Under the pieces are notes generated by a model. That model did not search any database. It saw only the letters and a program-made list of their open reading frames with translations, and was not told the origin of the DNA. From IMG/VR virus record IMGVR_UViG_3300025603_000008: 20,000 nucleotides of DNA; one strand, written 5' to 3'. This document shows, one piece after another, positions 4,499 to 20,000 of the stretch (position 1 is the stretch's first letter; each line of letters begins with the position of its first letter). Both the position numbers and the translations under genes were made by a program. The DNA comes from an uncultured virus (IMG/VR IMGVR_UViG_3300025603_000008) (lineage: Duplodnaviria; Heunggongvirae; Uroviricota; Caudoviricetes).

Positions 4499-5347
4499 AT
4501 GAACACAGAAAACACAACACCACCTTACAAAAAAGCAGCCCTCAAACCTCTCGACAAGTTTGTCGTTGAAGCAGGGTTCAATGTCCGCCTTGATATGGGT
4601 GACATCAAAACCCTTGCTGCACAATTGGAAGCAGCTTACGCAAAAGACCCTTATAGCATCCCTGCTATTCGTGGACACAACGGTGCATCAGGAACAGTTA
4701 TTGTTACTGATGGGCATCGAAAACTTGCAGCTGCAAAACTCGCAGGAATCCCAACTCTCCCTTACTTGCCGTTCTCCTCAGATATTTTGGAACGAACCGT
4801 AGCTATGGCTTCGTTGAACGCAGGTAAAGATTTGAACGAGATGGAGAAGGCTCGATTGATTCAACGAATCACAACCATCTTGAAAGAACGCAGTCCAAGC
4901 ATTTCTGAAAAAGAAATTTGCACTTTCTGTACTGAGTCCATTGGTTGCTCTCAATCATCTTACTACAACTACAAAGCACTCTTGAACGAGAATGTATCTG
5001 TGGATGTGCAAGACTTGGTTGCTGAGGGTAAAGTGTCTTCTACAGTCGTGCGAAACCTTTCAAAGCAAGTGAAAGACCCTGCCGAGTTGACAAAAACAAT
5101 CTTCGGACTGGTTAAAACTGCACAAAAAGCTGTTGAATCAGGCACGAAAGCACCCGCAAAAGTGAAGCCGTCCTCAGCTATGAAGGAATTTCAACATCTC
5201 CCTGTGAGCAAAAAAATTGAACAGTTCGCTGTTGAATTGCTTGACTCTCCCTCAGAAAAAGGACAATTTATCTTGAAAGTTATCACCCAACTTCAAGACA
5301 AGGAAACAACTCTTGAGAAAATTGTGGCTCAGGTGAATGCGGAGTAA
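4499..5347 (+). CDS. ParB/Srx-family N-terminal domain protein with HTH
   Basis: FNVR, VIVTDGHRKLAAAKLAG (GxRR-like box, second R replaced by K), LNxxKDLNEMEKA and a following HTH-like segment. Confidence 0.85.
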   Translation: MNTENTTPPYKKAALKPLDKFVVEAGFNVRLDMGDIKTLAAQLEAAYAKDPYSIPAIRGHNGASGTVIVTDGHRKLAAAKLAGIPTLPYLPFSSDILERTVAMASLNAGKDLNEMEKARLIQRITTILKERSPSISEKEICTFCTESIGCSQSSYYNYKALLNENVSVDVQDLVAEGKVSSTVVRNLSKQVKDPAELTKTIFGLVKTAQKAVESGTKAPAKVKPSSAMKEFQHLPVSKKIEQFAVELLDSPSEKGQFILKVITQLQDKETTLEKIVAQVNAE

Positions 5348-5486: not shown

Positions 5487-6048
5487 GTGAACTACCCACC
5501 CACGCCAGAGGCGATGGGATGGGCTTCAGGAGTCAGCACTTTGACTAACGTCAACAGTTCGTCCTGATTTTTAAGAGTGTGTTCCCCACTCAAATTATTT
5601 TTTAAAGCAAAAGATTTAATATTTATGGAAGCATTTACATCACGGTCAAGAACAGAAGTACACACAGAACAAGTCCATTCACGGTCTTTAAGTGTGAGTT
5701 CTTTGTTTATATTTCCACAGCAAGAGCAAGTTTTACTTGACGGTGCAAAACGTCCTATTCTTAGGATGTTTTTACCATACCAATCAGCTTTGTATTCTAA
5801 CATAGTTACAAAAGTTGACCAACTTACATCGGTAATTGCTTGCGCTAAATTGTGGTTCTTAACCATATTACTTACTGCGAGTGTCTCTAAGCAAATCGTT
5901 TGGTTCTCACGAATTAACTTAGTAGATGTTTTGTGCAAAAAATCTTTGCGTTTGTTTACTACCTTCTCATGTAATAAGGCAAGGCGTTGTTTTGTCCGCT
6001 TACATCCCATCCACGCAAAAGCGATGAATGGGTTTTACGCTCCGTTTT
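5487..6048 (-). mobile_element. internally deleted IS200/IS605-family element
   Basis: left end after TTTAT with hairpin CCCATTCATCGCTTTTGCGTGGATGGG; right end hairpin CCCATCCCATCGCCTCTGGCGTGGGTGGG ending in GTTCAC; contains only 3' tnpB. Confidence 0.8.
5492..6010 (-). pseudogene. tnpB: 5'-truncated TnpB (RuvC-II, Zn finger, RuvC-III)
   Basis: RKDFLHKTS, ICLETLAVSNM, SSKTCSCCG, WTCSVC, DRDVNASINI motifs; N-terminal half and RuvC-I missing. Confidence 0.9.
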
Positions 6049-6063
6049 ATAAAATTGATTATC

Positions 6064-6537
6064 ATGGCAAGAAATGAGAAACAAAATACTTCTAACCCTC
6101 TAATAGCGGGAAGGGCTTACTTACGACTAAGAGAGAAAGAAGGAGCAAGTGTGCAAGAGATTGCAGAAGCATTTAGGGTTTCAATTCCAGCTGTATACAA
6201 ATATATGCAATTAGCTGAGTGCGATGAGGATGTTCAAAACTCTATTGAGAATGGAGATATCACAGCCACAATGGTAATCTCTATTCTTCATAAGCATGAT
6301 AAGAAAGACGTTTATGTCGAAGTTAGAAAAGCAGTAGAGGCAAGGAAACTTGAACAGAAAAAGCTAGGGGATAAAGGCATTTCGAAGATGACAGTAAAGC
6401 GTCGATTAAAAGAGCTTACAAAAGAAATTGATGAACAAAACCTTAATTCACCAAAAGCAGTTTTTTTGAAAGAAATAGCTGAGAAACTTATCTCTGGAAA
6501 TTCTGTTGAAGAGCTGATTGGCTTAACATTAGTATAA
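6064..6537 (+). CDS. ParB-like HTH domain protein lacking the N-terminal CTPase domain
   Basis: AYLRLREKEGASVQEIAEAFRVSIPAVYKYMQL..VQNSIENGDIT resembles the ParB central region; ATG6028 lies inside the IS end, so 6064 is preferred. Confidence 0.75.
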   Translation: MARNEKQNTSNPLIAGRAYLRLREKEGASVQEIAEAFRVSIPAVYKYMQLAECDEDVQNSIENGDITATMVISILHKHDKKDVYVEVRKAVEARKLEQKKLGDKGISKMTVKRRLKELTKEIDEQNLNSPKAVFLKEIAEKLISGNSVEELIGLTLV

Positions 6538-9726: not shown

Positions 9727-10350
9727 ATGACGACAATCGCACAAGTCAGAAGACCAAAACAAAAGGAACGCAAAGAAGCGGATGCAAAGTTAATAAGCTT
9801 AATGCTTAATGGTTCAAACCGAGAAAAAGAGCAGGCTTACACTGAGCTTTATAGCAATTACACTTACTTCTTGACCTACTTCTTTAGCAAGTCAGTACAA
9901 GACCCGAATTCAGTAGCCGACTTGATGATTGAATCCATTGGAAAAGCATTTAAAAACATTCATAAGTTTGATTCTAAATACGCTTTCTCCACGTGGATGC
10001 ACACAATCGCCACCAACACACTCATCGACTTCAAACGCAAACAGAAAATTGAAGTTCAATCCTTTGAGGAGTTGAGTCATTCAGATGATGAAGGAAAAAA
10101 CTATATTTTTGAAGCAAGGTCAAATGGTATGCAGCCTGATGAAATTATCGAACGACAGGCTTCTCATGTGGAGTTACACAAGAAAGTAAATAACCTAAGA
10201 CCTATATACAAAAAGCTTATCGAGATGCGCTTCATTCAAGAGCTGTCGTATAAAGAGATTGCCGAATCACTTGGAGCAAGCATTGGCACAGTAAAGGCGC
10301 AGATATTTCGCGCTAAAAATGCGCTTGCAGTTCAATATGAAAACTGCTAA
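9727..10350 (+). CDS. ECF-subfamily RNA polymerase sigma-70 factor
   Basis: region 2 (ADLMIESIGKAFKNIHKFDSKYAFSTWMHTIATNTLIDFKRK) and region 4 (ELSYKEIAESLGASIGTVKAQIFRAK). Confidence 0.95.
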   Translation: MTTIAQVRRPKQKERKEADAKLISLMLNGSNREKEQAYTELYSNYTYFLTYFFSKSVQDPNSVADLMIESIGKAFKNIHKFDSKYAFSTWMHTIATNTLIDFKRKQKIEVQSFEELSHSDDEGKNYIFEARSNGMQPDEIIERQASHVELHKKVNNLRPIYKKLIEMRFIQELSYKEIAESLGASIGTVKAQIFRAKNALAVQYENC

Positions 10351-13880: not shown

Positions 13881-14108
13881 ATTAGATACGACACAAACGC
13901 TGTAGAAGGATTCATTGAAAGCAAACAACCTTCGAACTCTCTCAAAAACACCTTAAATACGAAATTAGATGTATACAGAAATTACAATGCCATATGCTAG
14001 ATTTCGTTGGTATAAAGATATTGTCCCGATGAGCCAAGTTCGGAACATTGAACTCGCTTATAACAATTCAACGGAAAATGGTACGTCGGAATCGAATGCC
14101 GTACCATT

Positions 14109-14375
14109 TTGAAGTTTGAATCCGCTGAGCAGCGGGAAGAAATATTGGTCAAAATGAATGATTTGCTGCTGAGTACAAATCTGTATTTTAGAAACGAAGG
14201 GCTTCCCAGATTTGAATGGAAAGACTTTACTCCTAAACCAGAGTCTGAAACAGAACTAAATGACCTCAGTAACGAGACAAAGGAAGCCTTGATGAATTTG
14301 TCAGACCCAGAGAAACCGATACAACTGCAGGTGCCAGATTACAGACCCGCTTGGAGAAAATTATTTGGAATATGA
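14109..14375 (+). CDS. hypothetical protein (possibly the 3' part of a frameshifted gene starting at 13987)
   Basis: TTG start overlaps the stop of a 41-aa ORF 13987-14112; frame is open back to about 14063. Confidence 0.6.
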   Translation: MKFESAEQREEILVKMNDLLLSTNLYFRNEGLPRFEWKDFTPKPESETELNDLSNETKEALMNLSDPEKPIQLQVPDYRPAWRKLFGI

Positions 14376-14584
14376 GCAAGAAAATGATTAATATACCGCA
14401 ACACCTCCAGTCTAAGTTCGCCAACGCAGAAGAGTCTGAACCAGGTGCGCACACAGTGGATATATTCTACGCTAATAAAGTCATTTGTGGAGTGAAAATA
14501 GTGAACAGATGTGTAGCGCTTATTCACCATGAAATCAAACTCTCTACCGAAGATATTACAAACATAAAATTGGTTTCAATTTAG
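14372..14584 (+). CDS. hypothetical protein
   Basis: ATG14372 (MSKKMINIP) overlaps the previous TGA. Confidence 0.7.
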   Translation: MSKKMINIPQHLQSKFANAEESEPGAHTVDIFYANKVICGVKIVNRCVALIHHEIKLSTEDITNIKLVSI

Positions 14585-14595
14585 TTCATCCCAAC

Positions 14596-14623
14596 TGAAA
14601 CTTTTCTCGTTTTAAACCGTATA
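14596..14623 (+). promoter_or_regulatory. motif B ECF-type promoter TGAAAC-N16-CGTATA
   Basis: exact match; upstream of candidate sRNA 2. Confidence 0.65.
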
Positions 14624-14628
14624 CTTAG

Positions 14629-14724
14629 TGATTGGGAGTAGTTACCCACGTGTTTGACTAATCTTTCAAATACGGTTTTAGTTTTTTCAGCTCTATAGAA
14701 GAGACTCCCACGGGGGTCTTTTTT
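14629..14724 (+). ncRNA. candidate small RNA 2
   Basis: promoter B, hairpins 14633-14648 and 14649-14674, U-rich linker, terminator 14699-14724; no ORF. Confidence 0.5.
14699..14724 (+). terminator. intrinsic terminator
   Basis: GAGACTCCC..GGGGGTCTT plus T tract. Confidence 0.75.
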
Positions 14725-14744
14725 ATTTGTTGGGCCTTTTTTCT

Positions 14745-14770
14745 CATCCTGGTTCGGGGGTTCGACTCAT
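14745..14770 (+). promoter_or_regulatory. motif A promoter
   Basis: exact match. Confidence 0.7.
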
Positions 14771-14831
14771 ACCTTATGGAAAACCGCTTTCTCTAGTTTT
14801 TTTGCTGCTGTTTTATTTCTTCTGCTTTTTC

Positions 14832-14857
14832 CATCCCAAACCACTCTTTCGACTCAT
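14832..14857 (+). promoter_or_regulatory. motif A promoter
   Basis: exact match, 87 bp after the previous copy. Confidence 0.7.
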
Positions 14858-14923
14858 CCCTTGTGGAAAACTATGCTCAAAAAAAACTCTTGAAATTTCT
14901 TTCAAAAAACTTTCTTTGTTTCT

Positions 14924-14960
14924 CATCCCAAATGAAACTTTTCACTCTACTCAACGTATA
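14924..14960 (+). promoter_or_regulatory. overlapping motif A-like (CATCC-N15-ACTCTA) and motif B (TGAAAC-N16-CGTATA) promoters
   Basis: CATCC 14924, ACTC 14944; TGAAAC 14933, CGTATA 14955. Confidence 0.6.
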
Positions 14961-15121
14961 TTTAAGTAGACGCATGAGCAACTAACAACCCACAAGATGA
15001 GAAACACACCAAGGAAAAACTTAAAAACGAAATCAATTCTATTATCCGCTCTCTAACTAGCTCTCGAACCTCACTAAGGACTTACCTTTGCGCTTGGCCC
15101 TCCAAACATAAAGAACACCGC

Positions 15122-15178
15122 CTAAGTCGCTCTAAGTCGCTCTAAGTCGCTCTAAGTCGCTCTAAGTCGCTCTAAGTC
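15122..15178. repeat. perfect 10-bp tandem repeat (CTAAGTCGCT) x5.7
   Basis: read directly. Confidence 0.95.
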
Positions 15179-15904
15179 CATAGCGAAACTCGGTTATACT
15201 TGCCAATAAACACACGAGAAACTAGATGCATAGCATGCTGTGGAGGAGATGAATTTCGCTATGACCTGAAAACAAAAATGAGTTCCATCAGTGGAATTCA
15301 ACCACAAAAAGGTAAAAAGTGGCAGAAAACCCTCCGACCAGTAAATCTCTTACACAGAAATAATCCAATTACATTGATGGAATTATCTTTAATGGTTTCT
15401 TTTAAAAAGAAAGAACCCGCAACTGTCTGCTACCCAGACTCTCCCTACGTTTTGTTGTGAAAAAAAAATGCATTGTTGGATTCTCAACTTGCTGGCTCTA
15501 CAGGTTTTTAGCAGGTGAAAATTAGCATGGCAGATAATGGCAAATTTTGGCGGGACCGACCCCAGCTTCAGCTGCACCAATAAACATAACTCTCCCTGAT
15601 ACATTATTGATTCACATAAGAACTAAACAAGTCTTTAGTGAAGTTCTTAAATAATCCTTAAAACAAAAAACAATTTTAACGTTTATTTAACTGTCTTTCT
15701 TTCTATTAACCCTACGCCAGGTTAACAACTCAGCTCATTATCACCAATATTTTTTACAAAAACAGCATTTAAAGGCCTTTATTTTTATTTATTTGCCACC
15801 CATTATAAACGCTTTTAAGCCTTTTTTATCCCCAAAGTGAGTTATTCGACACCAACCACCCCCAAACTCTCCCTACGCCCCCTTAAAATCATTCTAGAAC
15901 CTCA

Positions 15905-16201
15905 CTAACTCTCCCCTGTATTTATCGCATTTAAAAGGCGGTTGATTTCCTCACTAACTCTCCCTTGATTTGAGTCTGGTCTGAGCAGGGTATTCCCAAA
16001 CTCTCCCCCAGTATAACTCTCTAAGGAAATAGAATACGCAGCAAACTCTCCAGTGATTCCACCCCAATTCAAAACGAATCCACGAAGTTGAAGACTTTGC
16101 AACCCATTTATCCCATACCTGTGTGCTTTGATGGGAGCATTTGAATCCATAAGTTCCTTAACGATGTCGCTTGATTGTTTTTGATTATGTTTCCACTTCA
16201 T
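15905..16201 (-). CDS. hypothetical protein directly downstream of the array
   Basis: 98 aa; ATG 3 nt after the stop of the terminal stub; contains DNA repeats in mixed frames. Confidence 0.45.
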   Translation of the reverse strand: MKWKHNQKQSSDIVKELMDSNAPIKAHRYGINGLQSLQLRGFVLNWGGITGEFAAYSISLESYTGGEFGNTLLRPDSNQGRVSEEINRLLNAINTGES

Positions 16202-16204
16202 ATT

Positions 16205-16249
16205 TTATTTATCATTTGTTGACGTTTGCGTTGCCATTTTCAGTCTCAT
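16205..16249 (-). other. terminal stub of the array (MRLKMATQTSTNDK*)
   Basis: ATGAGACTGAAA start overlapping the last full unit's TGA; stops after 14 codons. Confidence 0.8.
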
Positions 16250-16512
16250 ACAAATGTAAGTCTTATTTCACTGCTCCAATCCCAATTATCCCAACCGTTG
16301 GCTTTGGAGCCAACAGTCCCTTTGTTGATTTCAACGAGCCAACCCCCAGGGAATCCATCCAAAGGAAACCACACATCATGAACCGCCTCGCTTGGCTTGT
16401 TTTGAAGACGCATCCAAACGCCCCGCGCGTTGGTTACCCTTACTTCGAACCCACGACGAATCAATGCGTCTTTGCATGCATCTGTTGCATCTTTTGTCGT
16501 TTTCAGTCTCAT
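16246..16512 (-). CDS. array paralog (MRLKT family), unknown function
   Basis: 88 aa; conserved DAC/RxGF/LRL/KPxE/WF/KGT/WD blocks; ATGA overlaps. Confidence 0.85.
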   Translation of the reverse strand: MRLKTTKDATDACKDALIRRGFEVRVTNARGVWMRLQNKPSEAVHDVWFPLDGFPGGWLVEINKGTVGSKANGWDNWDWSSEIRLTFV

Positions 16513-16775
16513 GCCAGTTTAAGTGTTATTATATTGGCCCAATCCCAATCAACCCAACCGTTGTCTTTGTAGCCAACAACAGTCCCTTTGTGGATTGTAA
16601 CAAACCAATCACAACGGTATCCACGAGGGAACAACGCTTCATAAAACTCACCTGGCTTATCTTCTCCAATACGCAACCACAACGGGCTGCTCGTGGTTTT
16701 AAATCCACCACGAAGCAATTGCTCTTTGCATGCATCTGTTGCATCGCATGCATCTGTTGTTGTTTTCAGTCTCAT
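16509..16775 (-). CDS. array paralog (MRLKT family)
   Basis: 88 aa; same blocks. Confidence 0.85.
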   Translation of the reverse strand: MRLKTTTDACDATDACKEQLLRGGFKTTSSPLWLRIGEDKPGEFYEALFPRGYRCDWFVTIHKGTVVGYKDNGWVDWDWANIITLKLA

Positions 16776-17041
16776 GCAAATCTAAGTATTATTGTGTTGG
16801 AAAAATCCCAATCAACCCCGCTGATGGTTTTAGAGCCCCCAACGGTCCCTTTGTAGATTCGAACGAATTCACCCCTACGGTATCCATGAGGGAACCACGC
16901 TTCATAAACCTCACCTGGTTTGTCTCCACAAAGACGCAACCATTGTGTGTTGTTCCAGGGTTCAAACCCACGACGAAGCAATTGTTCTTTGGATGCATCG
17001 CTTGCATCGCATGCGTCTTTTGTTGTCGTTTTCAGTCTCAT
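16772..17041 (-). CDS. array paralog (MRLKT family)
   Basis: 89 aa; near-identical to 17295-17561. Confidence 0.85.
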   Translation of the reverse strand: MRLKTTTKDACDASDASKEQLLRRGFEPWNNTQWLRLCGDKPGEVYEAWFPHGYRRGEFVRIYKGTVGGSKTISGVDWDFSNTIILRFA

Positions 17042-17298
17042 GCCAATATAAGGATTATTTTAGTGGTCCAACCACTGTTTTTTGAGCCAGCAACGGTCCC
17101 TTTGTAGAATGCAGCGAAATAATCAATACGGAATCCATCCAAAGGGACCCACACATCATAAACCTCACCTGGCTTGTCTCCATGACGCAACCACCATGAG
17201 TTGTTCATGTCTTTGAACCCACCACGAAACAATTGTTCTCGGCATGCATCACTTGCATCTTTTGTTGTTTGCGTTTGCGTTGTCGTTTTCAGTCTCAT
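17038..17298 (-). CDS. array paralog (MRLKT family)
   Basis: 86 aa. Confidence 0.85.
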   Translation of the reverse strand: MRLKTTTQTQTTKDASDACREQLFRGGFKDMNNSWWLRHGDKPGEVYDVWVPLDGFRIDYFAAFYKGTVAGSKNSGWTTKIILILA

Positions 17299-17561
17299 GC
17301 AAATCTAAGTATTATTGTGTTGGAAAAATCCCAATCAACCCCGCTGATGGTTTTAGAGCCCCCAACGGTCCCTTTGTAGATTCGAACGAGCCAATCCCTA
17401 CGGTATCCATGAGGGAACCACGCTTCATAAACCTCACCTGGTTTGTCTCCACAAAGACGCAACCATTGTGTGTTGTTACAGGGTTCAAACCCATCACGAA
17501 TCAATTGTTCTTTGCATGCATCGCTTGCATCGCATGCTTCTTTTGTCGTTTTCAGTCTCAT
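17295..17561 (-). CDS. array paralog (MRLKT family)
   Basis: 88 aa. Confidence 0.85.
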   Translation of the reverse strand: MRLKTTKEACDASDACKEQLIRDGFEPCNNTQWLRLCGDKPGEVYEAWFPHGYRRDWLVRIYKGTVGGSKTISGVDWDFSNTIILRFA

Positions 17562-17827
17562 GCCAATCTAAATTTTATTGTGTTGGAAAAATCCCAATCC
17601 CAATCAACCGAGCCAATGCTGTTTTTGGGGCCAGCAGTCCCTTTGTAGATTTTAACGAACCAATCCCTGCGGAATCCATCGCTAGGGAACCACGCTCGAT
17701 AAGCCTCACCTGGCTTGTCTTGAAGACGCAACTCTACTATAGTTGAGTACCGCTTCGTGTCTTTGAATCCACAACGAATCAATTGCTCTTGGCATGCGTC
17801 TGTTTGCGTTGCCGTTTTCAGTCTCAT
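17558..17827 (-). CDS. array paralog (MRLKT family)
   Basis: 89 aa. Confidence 0.85.
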   Translation of the reverse strand: MRLKTATQTDACQEQLIRCGFKDTKRYSTIVELRLQDKPGEAYRAWFPSDGFRRDWFVKIYKGTAGPKNSIGSVDWDWDFSNTIKFRLA

Positions 17828-18090
17828 ACCAATTTAAGTTTTATTGTGTTGGTCCAATCCCAATCAACCCCTCTGATGGTTTTGGAGCCAGCAGTCCCTT
17901 TATTGATTCGAACGAACCAATCCCTTCGGTCCCCATCGTGAGGGAACCACACTTTATAAACCTCACCTGGCTTGTTTTCAAGACGCAACCCAACGCACCG
18001 AGGGTTGTACGTCGCGGTTTCAAATCCACGACGAATAAATGCCTCTTGGCATGCATCTTTTGCATTTGTTTTTGCCGTTTTTAGTCTCAT
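17824..18090 (-). CDS. array paralog (MRLKT family)
   Basis: 88 aa. Confidence 0.85.
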   Translation of the reverse strand: MRLKTAKTNAKDACQEAFIRRGFETATYNPRCVGLRLENKPGEVYKVWFPHDGDRRDWFVRINKGTAGSKTIRGVDWDWTNTIKLKLV

Positions 18091-18335
18091 GCCAATCTAA
18101 GTATTATTGCACTGTTCCAATGCCAACCAACCGAGCCACTGCTGGCTCCAAAACCAGCAGTCCCTTTTTGGATTGCAACGAATCTATCTCCAAGGTATCC
18201 ATAATAGAACCACGCTTCATAAGCCTCACCTGGCTCGTCTCCTCCAAGCCACAACCGCCAAGGGCTGATAGTTTTAAACCCACCACGAATCAATTGCTCT
18301 TGGCATGCGTCTATTTGTGCTGTCTTTAGTCTCAT
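18087..18335 (-). CDS. array paralog (MRLKT family)
   Basis: 82 aa. Confidence 0.85.
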   Translation of the reverse strand: MRLKTAQIDACQEQLIRGGFKTISPWRLWLGGDEPGEAYEAWFYYGYLGDRFVAIQKGTAGFGASSGSVGWHWNSAIILRLA

Positions 18336-18583
18336 GCCAGTTTAAGGATTATTGTGTTGTAATAATCCCAATTAACCAAATTAACAAAGCCACGGCTGGT
18401 TTTGGAAGCAGCAACGGTCCCCTTGAGGATTTCAATGAATCCATCGTGAAGAAACCACACATCATAAACCTCACCTAGATTGTCTCCACCAAGACGCAAC
18501 CACTGCGAGCTGTACTTGATTTTAAACCCGCCACGAATCAATGCCTTCTGGCATGCGTCTGTTTGTGCTGTTTTCAGTCTCAT
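18332..18583 (-). CDS. array paralog (MRLKT family)
   Basis: 83 aa. Confidence 0.85.
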   Translation of the reverse strand: MRLKTAQTDACQKALIRGGFKIKYSSQWLRLGGDNLGEVYDVWFLHDGFIEILKGTVAASKTSRGFVNLVNWDYYNTIILKLA

Positions 18584-18867
18584 ACCAATCTAAGTATTAT
18601 TGTGTTGGCCCAATCCCAAAAAACAAAGCCAACGCTGGTTTTGGAGGCAGGCATAACGGTCCCTTTGTGGATTTCAACAAACCAATCCCTAAGGTATCCA
18701 TAGCGATGAAACCACACATCATAAACCTCACCTGGCTTGTTTTCTCCACCAAGACGCAACCAACGGTGGTTGCTCATCCAGGGTTCAAACCCACCACGAA
18801 TTAATGCTTCTCTGCATGTATGTGATTTGCGTACATCTGTTGTGTCTTTTGCTGTTTTCAGTCTCAT
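18580..18867 (-). CDS. array paralog (MRLKT family)
   Basis: 95 aa. Confidence 0.85.
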   Translation of the reverse strand: MRLKTAKDTTDVRKSHTCREALIRGGFEPWMSNHRWLRLGGENKPGEVYDVWFHRYGYLRDWFVEIHKGTVMPASKTSVGFVFWDWANTIILRLV

Positions 18868-19130
18868 ACAAATCTAAGTATTATTGTGTTGGAAGAATCC
18901 CAATCACCGTTGTCTTTGGAGCCAGCAGTCCCTTTGTTGATTGCAACGAAAAAATCCCCATGGTATCCACTAGAGAACCACGCTTCATAAATCACACCTG
19001 GCTTGTCTCCACCAAGACGCATCTTCAACCACCACGAGCTGTACTTATCGGCTTCAAATCCACCACGAATCAATTGTTCTTGGCATGCGTCTGTTGCATC
19101 TGTTGCATCTTTTGCCGTTTTCAGTCTCAT
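18864..19130 (-). CDS. array paralog (MRLKT family)
   Basis: 88 aa. Confidence 0.85.
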   Translation of the reverse strand: MRLKTAKDATDATDACQEQLIRGGFEADKYSSWWLKMRLGGDKPGVIYEAWFSSGYHGDFFVAINKGTAGSKDNGDWDSSNTIILRFV

Positions 19131-19432
19131 ACCAGTTTAAGTATTATTGTGTTGGAAATATCCCAAGCAACAAAGCCATCGAAGCTTTTGGAGGCAGCAA
19201 CGGCTCCTTTGTGGATTCGAACGAACCAATCCCCACGGAATCCATCGCGAGGGAACAACACATCATAAGCCTCACCTGGCTTATCTCCACCAAGGCGCAA
19301 CCCTAACATAGTTGAGTACCTATCCGTGGTTTTGAACCCACCACGAAGCAATTGTTCTTGGGTAGATTCCAATGAAATAATCCCTGCGGTATCCATAGCG
19401 CATGCCTCTTTTGTTGTTGTTTTCAGTTTCAT
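19127..19432 (-). CDS. array paralog with a 39-nt ectopic insertion
   Basis: 101 aa; AMDTAGIISLEST inserted after EAC. Confidence 0.85.
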   Translation of the reverse strand: MKLKTTTKEACAMDTAGIISLESTQEQLLRGGFKTTDRYSTMLGLRLGGDKPGEAYDVLFPRDGFRGDWFVRIHKGAVAASKSFDGFVAWDISNTIILKLV

Positions 19433-19689
19433 GCCAGTTTAAGTATTATTGGATTGGAAAAATCCCAAAAAAACCAACCGTTGATGATTTTGTAGCCAGG
19501 TACAGTCCCTTTGTAGATTTTAACGAACCAATCCCCACGGAATCCATCGCAAGGGAACCATGCATCATAAACCTCACCTGGCTTGTTTTGAAGACGCATT
19601 TCCAAAGCCCGCGAATTCGTCGTGGGTTTAAATCCACCACGAAGCAATTGTTCTTTGCATGCGTCTTTTGTTGTCGTTTTCAGTCTCAT
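19429..19689 (-). CDS. array paralog (MRLKT family)
   Basis: 86 aa. Confidence 0.85.
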   Translation of the reverse strand: MRLKTTTKDACKEQLLRGGFKPTTNSRALEMRLQNKPGEVYDAWFPCDGFRGDWFVKIYKGTVPGYKIINGWFFWDFSNPIILKLA

Positions 19690-19901
19690 ACAAATGTAAG
19701 TATTATTGTACTGGAAGAATCCCAGCCATCGTCTTTGTAGCCAGGTACAGTCCCTTTAGGGAACCACACATCATAAACCACACCTGGCTTGTCTCCACCA
19801 AGACGCAACCACTGCGAGTTGTACTTGGTTTTAAACCCACGACGAAGCAGTTGTTCTTTGCATGCTTTAGATGCATTTGTTGTTGCCGTTTTCAGTCTCA
19901 T
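19686..19901 (-). CDS. array paralog with an in-frame central deletion
   Basis: 71 aa; WFP joined directly to KGT. Confidence 0.8.
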   Translation of the reverse strand: MRLKTATTNASKACKEQLLRRGFKTKYNSQWLRLGGDKPGVVYDVWFPKGTVPGYKDDGWDSSSTIILTFV

Positions 19902-20000
19902 ACCAATATTAGGATTATATCCTGGCTATAATCCCAGTCAACCAAGCTGCTGGTTTTGTAAGCAGCAACGGTCCCCTTGTGGATTCGAACGAAATAACCC
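19898..20000 (-). CDS. array paralog, C-terminal part (truncated by window edge)
   Basis: ...YFVRIHKGTVAAYKTSSLVDWDYSQDIILILV* then ATGA overlap. Confidence 0.8.
   Translation of the reverse strand, partial: GYFVRIHKGTVAAYKTSSLVDWDYSQDIILILV

Follow-up and report, generated by a model that had tools for sequence, protein, structure and literature searches.

A 20,000-nucleotide stretch of DNA from an uncultured virus of the Caudoviricetes (IMG/VR record IMGVR_UViG_3300025603_000008), referred to here as the window, carries on its minus strand the distal two-thirds of a tandem array of 22 genes. Each gene, or unit, encodes a small protein of one family, and the carrier is an uncultured huge T4-like phage. 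The array is best read, with a probability of about 0.5, as a repertoire of small binders or inhibitors of PepSY-like type that would be translated together and be under diversifying selection, and whose diversity would be kept by homologous recombination. It stands out in that one huge phage holds 32 such paralogs with a measurable split between scaffold and diversifying positions, in that conversion events have been caught between natural strains with their donors identified, and in that the family can be linked, remotely, to a domain that acts by clasping enzymes.

Organization and extent of the array

The listing of open reading frames (ORFs) in the window contains 14 complete ORFs of the family on the minus strand between positions 16246 and 19901, with lengths, in ascending order of position, of 88, 88, 89, 86, 88, 89, 88, 82, 83, 95, 88, 101, 86 and 71 aa. 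They form a single uninterrupted chain in which the stop codon of each unit overlaps the start codon of the next in the sequence ATGA. Within the window the chain opens with a unit cut by the window edge (20000–19898) and closes with a 14-codon remnant of the head of a unit. All 15 starts in the window match ATGA(G/A)ACT(G/A)AA. An earlier interpretation made from the letters of the window (the sequence-only reading) had described 14 complete ORFs plus a partial one joined by ATGA with no intergenic DNA, together with this start pattern and a set of conserved blocks; the ORF list and the stop/start chain bear out the layout, the start pattern fits throughout, and the blocks are present in an alignment of the units. 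That alignment has 10 invariant columns and a mean column identity of 55%. A profile of the units matches each complete unit with E = 9e-29 to 1e-46, so the resemblance among them is not due to chance.

The same reading had counted at least 15 units, which holds for the window and falls short as a total. The end of a 446,956-base metagenome contig (L012) is 99.9% identical to window positions 17744–20000 and then extends upstream, adding eight units, the edge-cut one included, up to the start of the chain at L012 8396. The full array (array A) has 22 units and is ~5.9 kb in length. As the overlap is 2.3 kb long, the window and the 447-kb contig probably represent one phage population. A second array of 10 units (L010) lies on the contig that also carries L012, at a distance from the first of ~265 kb along the contig, or of at least 175 kb if the map is circular. 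The search for homologous arrays that had been proposed found them in related phages, with different unit number and content: related viral contigs carry an array of 11 units (L002, L003, L015) or arrays truncated at contig ends. The three arrays are thus chains of 22, 10 and 11 units (43 in total), all joined by ATGA. As had been remarked for the window, frames are kept intact despite many indels, among them an in-frame internal duplication of 34 residues in unit 8. Both arrays of the 447-kb contig are preceded by ~40 nt of a unit 3′ end and closed by a short 5′ remnant, and the repeat register is therefore offset from the ORFs.

The array recurs in independent data, which rules out an assembly artefact as its origin. 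Parts of it were recovered at 99.6–100% in the independent contigs L007, L012 and L014. Furthermore, 59–95% of its sampled words are present in 24 DNA runs from 24 studies, labelled as salt lake metagenome, and contigs from four of the 24 runs tile the array, many of them with zero differences. Some contigs contain joints that leap over parts of the array, by 1566 nt and by 3179 nt, and a further joint goes back; all fall at unit junctions, with sides of 27–45 nt. These apparent rearrangements are indistinguishable from ambiguity in the assembly graph.

The ATGA coupling and the lack of intergenic DNA suggest that the array is expressed as one polycistron. Only 2 of 20 window genes have a motif resembling a Shine–Dalgarno sequence upstream, and in a phage so poor in these sequences the absence of spacers and the ATGA overlaps make it probable that the units are translated serially by termination–reinitiation. 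In the mechanism proposed here a long transcript would be translated in this manner from unit to unit, with all variants being made together. Translational coupling favours balanced co-production.

A conserved scaffold with diversifying positions

Selection was analysed on 21 units of array A, unit 8 being left out. Differences at the three codon positions are near flat (0.251, 0.251 and 0.220) and the median pairwise ratio of nonsynonymous to synonymous change (dN/dS) is 0.93. Alignment columns were then assigned to classes on the other two arrays (B and C) and measured on array A, and the procedure was reversed, to avoid circularity. The 35 conserved columns have a dN/dS of 0.37 (0.23 in the reverse test), the 28 intermediate columns 1.26 (1.30) and the 21 variable columns 1.49 (1.75). 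Bootstrapping over columns gives intervals of 0.19–0.75 for the conserved class and 0.98–2.30 for the variable class, the latter exceeding 1 in 97% of bootstraps. With intermediate and variable columns taken together, the ratio is greater than 1 in 172 of 210 pairs by the NG86 method and in 167 of 209 by LWL85, at a transition/transversion ratio of ~1, with the proviso that the pairs counted are not independent. The YN00 method converged for 5–41 of the 210 pairs and its results were not used.

About 35 scaffold positions are under purifying selection. In the linker, in both later hairpins and at some positions of the strands, amino acids change faster than synonymous sites. On the predicted fold described below, the variable positions are located in the linker from the helix to strand 1, in the hairpins between strands 2–3 and 3–4, and at single positions within strands. 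The fixed scaffold with variable segments that the sequence-only reading had envisaged is thus recovered in cross-validated form (0.23–0.37 in conserved against 1.3–1.75 in variable columns), and a dN/dS near 1, which would have spoken against it, is not what the conserved blocks show.

The same data bear on whether the units have a function at all. Selfish or neutral tandem DNA, held open by chance and homogenisation and now decaying, would show a dN/dS near 1 through relaxed selection, and the overall ratio, the flat codon-position rates and the existence of units that are frameshifted or internally duplicated are in keeping with this. Such an origin is highly improbable, being largely refuted by the purifying selection on the scaffold: columns conserved in one array show the low ratios given above in the other, and invariant residues carry synonymous changes (F46 with pN 0 and pS 1.4; K91 with pN 0 and pS 0.77). 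In addition, frames and ATGA chaining are retained by 43 units in three arrays, the family profile still resembles a real protein domain, and the arrays persist in several related phages.

Recombination and turnover of units

Distances between units computed on the N-terminal, the middle and the C-terminal block show no correlation with one another (Mantel r = 0.07, 0.06 and 0.16, none significant). The same nearest relative is found in all three blocks for only 2 of 21 units, these being the 89%-identical pair 18 and 20. The longest exact run common to two units has a median of 19 nt, and it is at least 20 nt long in 94 of 210 pairs. A test for mosaicism based on run length (50 of 210 pairs beyond all 300 shuffles) is confounded by the clustering of slow sites, and weight is therefore placed on the Mantel test and on chimeras between strains.

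Strains are set apart by two conversion events whose donors could be identified. Over 10,872 nt, strain L007 and the window differ at 40 positions, 29 of which are concentrated in the 132 bases of 16515–16646 within the 3′ half of unit 21. The L007 patch is identical at 157 of 159 positions to the 3′ half of unit 18 (17286–17444), three units upstream. The other event joins the two arrays: unit 2 of the second array, as found in strains L009 and L004, carries B02 ends (100%) around a core of ~150 nt that is 96–100% identical to the central part of unit 13 of array A. Whole units differ between strains as well. Units 21 and 22 are kept in L008 with other units before them, and unit 11 is kept in L013 among other neighbours. 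Arrays B and C have their last five units in common (four identical, one at 98%) and differ in their proximal units, the flanks being 92–97% identical. Frameshifted units occur too, in the form of two family members from other strains, P0066 and P0069.

Reshuffling by recombination, as put forward in the sequence-only reading, is supported by the uncorrelated block histories together with the two conversion events. Its further proposal of a dedicated diversifying gene-cassette system is not. No reverse transcriptase or recombinase is found among the 20 proteins of the 8.4 kb that precede the array, the region beyond position 20000 in which a check for them had been suggested, nor among the 23 window proteins (16 kb downstream), and ordinary homologous recombination therefore suffices. 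A diversity-generating retroelement would require a reverse transcriptase and a template repeat; here, the variation is spread across paralogs and is not limited to one target repeat. A small set of discrete cassettes was also rejected, with 33–37 variants per block among 38 distinct units amounting to near-continuous variation. General homologous recombination through the conserved blocks would be an economical mechanism. In this scheme conserved DNA blocks, chiefly the unit junction, would allow tracts of ~130–150 nt to be copied within and between arrays; homologous recombination would also add, delete or replace whole units, and some units would decay.

Recombining tandem paralog arrays are already known from bacteria (PMC2568036, PMC9484751, PMC3482391), and the comparisons made here draw on the available portions of these papers. 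The lpl cluster of Staphylococcus aureus resembles the array in having a conserved recombination site within each copy and incongruent phylogenies for parts of the ORFs (Tsuru and Kobayashi, 2008; PMC2568036). The hallmark of lpl is that the 3′ part of one ORF co-evolves with the 5′ part of the next. In the phage array such a junction-spanning evolutionary unit was not found (C block of one unit against N block of the following one: Mantel r = −0.05, p = 0.74, 33 junctions), and there is no intergenic region. Unit junctions also lack RNA structure (−0.23 kcal/mol, 0 covarying pairs). The strings of esaG and tipC immunity genes likewise consist of tandem non-identical paralogs with common blocks of high similarity, where recombination between paralogs explains chimeras and the loss or gain of copies between close strains (Garrett et al., 2022; PMC9484751). 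In contrast to these, the array described here lies in a phage, has no known cognate toxin, exchanges sequence between two distant arrays, is ATGA-coupled without intergenic DNA and has a dN/dS above 1 at its variable columns.

These likenesses raise the possibility that the array is the phage form of a homogeneous polyimmunity locus, a repertoire for immunity or exclusion. It would neutralise polymorphic toxins or effectors of rival bacteria or phages, or toxins of the phage itself, whereby the infected cell would be protected or superinfecting phages excluded. As far as the accessible text of Zhang et al. (2012; PMC3482391) describes them, such loci also consist of paralogs from a single small family that stand in tandem and are oriented alike, with a minimal spacing that implies one polycistronic message and with a number and type of genes that vary between strains; recombination through conserved blocks, as for esaG and tipC (PMC9484751), would fit too. 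Nevertheless this function is improbable. No toxin gene or cassette was recognised near either array, the family is without a match in the libraries searched and is not among the immunity families listed in the part of PMC3482391 consulted, and the genome is that of a lytic-type huge phage rather than a bacterial chromosome. Furthermore, two loci in one genome are unusual, being found in ~13% of the organisms with such loci according to the same source.

Remote relationship to the PepSY domain

The family was seen in viral and metagenome contigs only, and is present at all six confirmed viral-contig loci. It occurs in 0 of 185,579 species genomes, and a tblastn search of one unit against 50,697 phage records produced no match. 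The ESM Atlas held no usable match for the family, and sequence searches of the PDB were empty.

The sequence-only reading had not recognised the family, and here reciprocal profile searches uncovered a remote PepSY-like similarity. A profile search of 1.84 billion representative proteins returned only 24 at E ≤ 0.001, of which 16 (E ≤ 1e-10) are family members or fragments. The remaining eight are long proteins with weaker matches (E = 6e-10 to 1e-4, three to five stretches in each); seven carry three to six PepSY domains, and one is a protein with UBA repeats. The family profile matched 29 stretches, every one of which sits on a PepSY repeat, in one register. Alignment of the family with seven PepSY segments, taken at their Pfam coordinates, by hhalign gave a probability of 72% and E = 3.4e-5 over unit residues 9–71. 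In the opposite direction, a hidden Markov model built only from 31 repeats of those bacterial PepSY proteins was run against 4293 six-frame ORFs, 148 of them from the family, and its top 40 matches were all family units (best E = 2.8e-4). These profile comparisons support the family being a remote relative of the PepSY domain.

The AlphaFold model of unit 18 contains a helix (residues 12–22) followed by four strands, with a predicted local distance difference test (pLDDT) score of 72.5. A typical unit of ~88 residues is accordingly modelled as one helix packed on a four-stranded sheet. In 42 units no signal peptide or transmembrane-like segment was detected (top 15-residue hydropathy mean 1.39; N-terminal 20-residue mean at most 0.09), and from their composition the units are predicted to be soluble proteins. 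They are mostly basic, with pI values of 4.8–10.1 and a median of 9.1. A fused form with two domains was considered and rejected, as the 'long' matches within the family are an internal duplication and frameshifted calls.

The units share with PepSY (PF03413) the in-register reciprocal profile similarity over unit residues ~10–72, and the predicted order of a helix followed by an antiparallel sheet would agree. They differ in being single domains to which a further strand is added at the C terminus and a short variable tail at the N terminus, in having a nearly invariant Cys in the helix, and in forming 10–22 separate phage genes where PepSY proteins carry tandem domains in one chain. In the available descriptions, PepSY domains clasp and inhibit or chaperone enzymes, as YpeB does with SleB and as do the pro-domains of M4 proteases (PMC13556211, PMC9988556). 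Enzyme clasping and inhibition (PMC13556211) fit a binder or inhibitor role for the units, and for this reason a co-expressed repertoire of binders or inhibitors is considered the most likely function.

PepSY domains could also suggest that the units are building blocks of a multi-subunit structure, pairing or chaining via their sheets, in the way of tandem PepSY domains in a single polypeptide, into mixed oligomers that would serve as a scaffold, decorate the virion or offer a combinatorial surface for binding. The nearest sequence relatives do carry three to six PepSY domains in tandem, and the balanced co-production favoured by translational coupling would suit such subunits. In YpeB, LanP and UipA, moreover, two PepSY domains come together as a pseudo-symmetric dimer and build a single extended sheet (PMC13556211, PMC9988556, in the portions available). 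This is quite improbable for the array, since subunits of a fixed structure would not normally display a dN/dS above 1, such a wide range of pI, or units that are gained, lost or frameshifted from strain to strain, and no true two-domain fused form exists.

A shared N-terminal motif in a larger gene block

The motif at the start of the units is not confined to them. In the 6 kb upstream of the array, on the array strand (L012 1808–7802, +), the sequence M-[RK]-[LFYW]-K opens 16 of ~20 small ORFs (64–129 aa) and is nearly matched by three others. The motif is thus common to all units and 17 unrelated small neighbours, the seventeenth being a 98-aa ORF downstream that starts with MKWK. Elsewhere it was found in 1 of ~135 ORFs of the other phage DNA compared (at an internal Met), and in none of 20 plus-strand genes of the window. 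It is written in varied codons. The block MRLKT, which the sequence-only reading had assigned to the family, must on this evidence be regarded as a property of the wider neighbourhood. The upstream ORFs were examined as possible diverged members of the family and rejected, hhalign probabilities being at most 21.5% and restricted to the first eight residues. Nineteen of them are ORFans in PHROGs and Pfam, and the homologues found for two consist of themselves and one 89% variant only. Several are also coupled by ATGA. The array is the distal part of a block of ~13 kb and ~40 genes, which is bounded by a divergent AAA-ATPase gene and by a repeat-rich non-coding region.

From its distribution, the motif could be a sorting signal, an operator or regulatory signature, or a translation-start optimum. 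If it directs loading into the capsid, the units may be packaged internal proteins that are injected with the DNA, to act in counter-defence within the first minute or in association with the DNA. This differs from the repertoire of binders mainly in the site and time of action, and is considered unlikely. It has in its favour a T4-type head module with an S77 prohead protease, the small size and mostly basic character of the units, and the restriction of the motif, in varied codons, to the array and its neighbours. It has against it that the motif consists of just four residues and could instead mark translation starts or regulation in a block of jointly regulated genes, and that no conserved cleavage site of the protease type follows it, judged by the T4 cleavage rule. 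The sole semi-conserved Glu (81% in array A) falls inside the predicted PepSY helix, where cleavage would therefore damage the domain.

T-even phages provide the precedent for such proteins. Their internal proteins IPI*, IPII and IPIII are small and highly diverse, and are thought to counter diverse host attack enzymes; the 76-residue IPI*, for example, inhibits GmrSD (Rao and Black, 2010; PMC3012670, in the part available). These defence proteins are otherwise unrelated and have only an N-terminal capsid targeting sequence in common, to which the four-residue motif of the units and 17 neighbours here may be comparable. The units differ in being paralogs of one fold, and their motif is much shorter than the T4 targeting sequence and is not followed by a conserved cleavage site. 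A broader version would make the array the self-diversifying core of a 13-kb arsenal of ~40 small proteins, in which the four-residue tag delivers or co-regulates the set (by capsid loading, for example) and the PepSY-like inhibitor repertoire, varied by continual gene conversion within and between the two distant arrays with no dedicated diversification enzyme, keeps ahead of polymorphic defence enzymes of the host. This extended scheme is tentative and rather doubtful as a whole.

Proposed function of the array

In the preferred reading, a co-translated repertoire of PepSY-like binders or inhibitors, the units would serve in an arms race, each fitted to its own variant of a polymorphic target. 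Most plausibly this target would be host defence or other host enzymes, the step from binder to counter-defence being tentative. Several observations weigh against this function. The units have no match in Pfam, PHROGs, PADLOC or NCBIfam, and the Pfam PepSY model (PF03413) detects 0 of 79 family members even at E ≤ 10; a Pfam scan likewise found 0 of 10 units at E ≤ 1. The two AlphaFold models (helix then four strands, pLDDT 72.5 and 67.3) are of moderate confidence only, and gave no fold match above noise. The PepSY proteins YpeB, LanP and UipA and the M4 pro-domains are, from the parts of the literature at hand, secreted, periplasmic or membrane-anchored, whereas the units have no export signal. 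The lower bound of dN/dS in the variable columns touches 1, the pairs are not independent, and recombination breaks the assumptions of the estimators. Lastly, frameshifted units occur in other strains, so some copies must be dispensable.

The expansion of one small domain to tens of copies in a huge phage has a parallel in the ~35 zinc-ribbon copies of Bacillus phage G (Iyer et al., 2021; PMC7824862). Both the domain and the phage lineage differ from those described here, and the portion of that paper available contains neither the words 'tandem' and 'PepSY' nor an analysis of selection or recombination in the expansion. A literature search, which did not extend to supplements, found no description of the family, of PepSY-like phage arrays, of comparable phage arrays or of the N-terminal motif. 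Should the units prove to be inhibitors, they would constitute a natural library on a tiny scaffold that marks the host proteins a giant phage must neutralise, and phages could achieve an anticipatory repertoire by homologous recombination alone. The common N-terminal tag on ~40 neighbouring small genes is a separate lead, and could represent a sorting or regulatory signal in a huge phage.

Features of individual units and expression signals

Units are numbered from the start of array A and all lie on the minus strand of the window. The 3′ end of unit 8 (19898–20000) is cut by the window edge; its complete copy (L012 10264–10635, +) encodes 123 aa, a length that comes from 34 residues (FEDRMNEDAW...PRGYR) being repeated exactly, in tandem and in frame, which shows out-of-register recombination within a unit. 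Unit 9 (19686–19901, 71 aa) is without the segment of the strand-2/3 hairpin. It is followed by unit 10 (19429–19689, 86 aa) and by unit 11 (19127–19432, 101 aa), which has a 13-residue insertion in the region of the N-terminal helix and of which P0066 is a frameshifted copy in another strain. Units 12 (18864–19130, 88 aa), 13 (18580–18867, 95 aa), 14 (18332–18583, 83 aa), 15 (18087–18335, 82 aa), 16 (17824–18090, 88 aa) and 17 (17558–17827, 89 aa) follow. Unit 18 (17295–17561, 88 aa) is the one modelled above, and after unit 19 (17038–17298, 86 aa) comes unit 20 (16772–17041, 89 aa), which with unit 18 makes up the closest pair of the array.

Unit 21 (16509–16775, 88 aa) contains the patch that differs in strain L007. 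Unit 22 (16246–16512, 88 aa) is the last complete unit, and one contig (run X22) carries a patch variant of it with 10 changes in 16291–16362. The head remnant (16205–16249, −), 14 codons MRLKMATQTSTNDK and then a stop, marks the 3′ boundary of the array. The ORFan of 98 aa that starts with MKWK (15905–16201, −) begins 4 nt past this remnant and is unrelated to the units.

In the N-terminal tail (unit residues 6–16; for example 17519–17546, −), one to four D-A-(T/S/C) repeats precede the nearly invariant Cys, and the variable length of the tail suggests slippage of a 9-nt repeat. On the plus strand, antisense ORFs of up to 154 aa cross unit boundaries (window 16171–19998). Since the coding strand is purine-rich (GC skew −0.15 to −0.28), they are probably a by-product of its composition and not genes.

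A match at 11 of 12 positions to a sigma-70-type promoter (TTGACT-16-TATAAT; 19914–19941, −) lies within unit 8 and precedes the start of unit 9 by 13 nt. No other site in the window scores 11/12 or better, and as 37 of 500 shuffles of the array region also give such a match it is not significant on its own. The T4 late promoter TATAAATA was found neither before the arrays nor before the capsid gene; its absence from the latter means that it says nothing on timing.

Phage and genomic context

The sister array is flanked by genes for a class II aminoacyl-tRNA synthetase and a Gp23-type major capsid protein, and close to it lies the S77 prohead protease gene, which is interrupted by an intein. 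In L002 (13999–15816, −) this T4-type protease (Peptidase_S77) is split by an intein with a LAGLIDADG domain. The closest deposited relatives of the capsid protein, at 31–46% identity, belong to uncultured phages of 484–595 kb, a Microcystis phage, Rhodothermus phage RM378 and Rak2-like jumbo phages. A near-identity search of the window against deposited phages and plasmids gave no match. No tRNAs were detected in the window or in six loci, and Rfam has no match in 14000–20000.

Directly before the array, an ORF (L012 7999–8361, +) matches the GatB/YqeY-type 'tRNA amidotransferase' family (phrog_1460, E = 1e-13). It has neither the part that corresponds to the first ~36 positions of the profile nor an in-frame start codon, and is possibly a broken gene. 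Besides the array and many ORFans the window codes for an ECF-type sigma factor (9727–10350, +; Sigma70 r2 and r4, phrog_1740) and a truncated TnpB (5492–6010, −), which consists of the C-terminal 172 aa with OrfB_IS605 and Cas12f-like TNB domains. Genes for two ParB-like proteins stand on either side of the latter (4499–5347 and 6028–6537). Relatives of the TnpB fragment at 71–86% identity come, for the top nine metagenome-assembled genomes and by label, from Bacteroidota (five), Saccharibacteria (three) and Gammaproteobacteria (one), which may serve as a weak hint to the host.

The sequence GGGAGAGTY occurs 10 times in the window where 0.14 copies are expected, always on the minus strand (3809, 4753, 5243, 8933, 15437, 15588, 15865, 15907, 15956 and 15999), and none was found in L012, L010 or L002. 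Six of the copies are located within 570 nt downstream of the array, some inside the 98-aa ORF, and extended forms recur, for example CGTAGGGAGAGTYTGGG and GGGAGAGTTAGTGAGG. A non-coding stretch at ~14586–16011 is rich in repeats, with several direct repeats of 14–42 nt and two inverted repeats, and a 10-nt unit CTAAGTCGCT is present in about six tandem copies at 15112–15188. An origin is one possible role for this stretch and its 10-nt tandem, as is a site for partition or packaging. The two ParB-like genes share the window with it.

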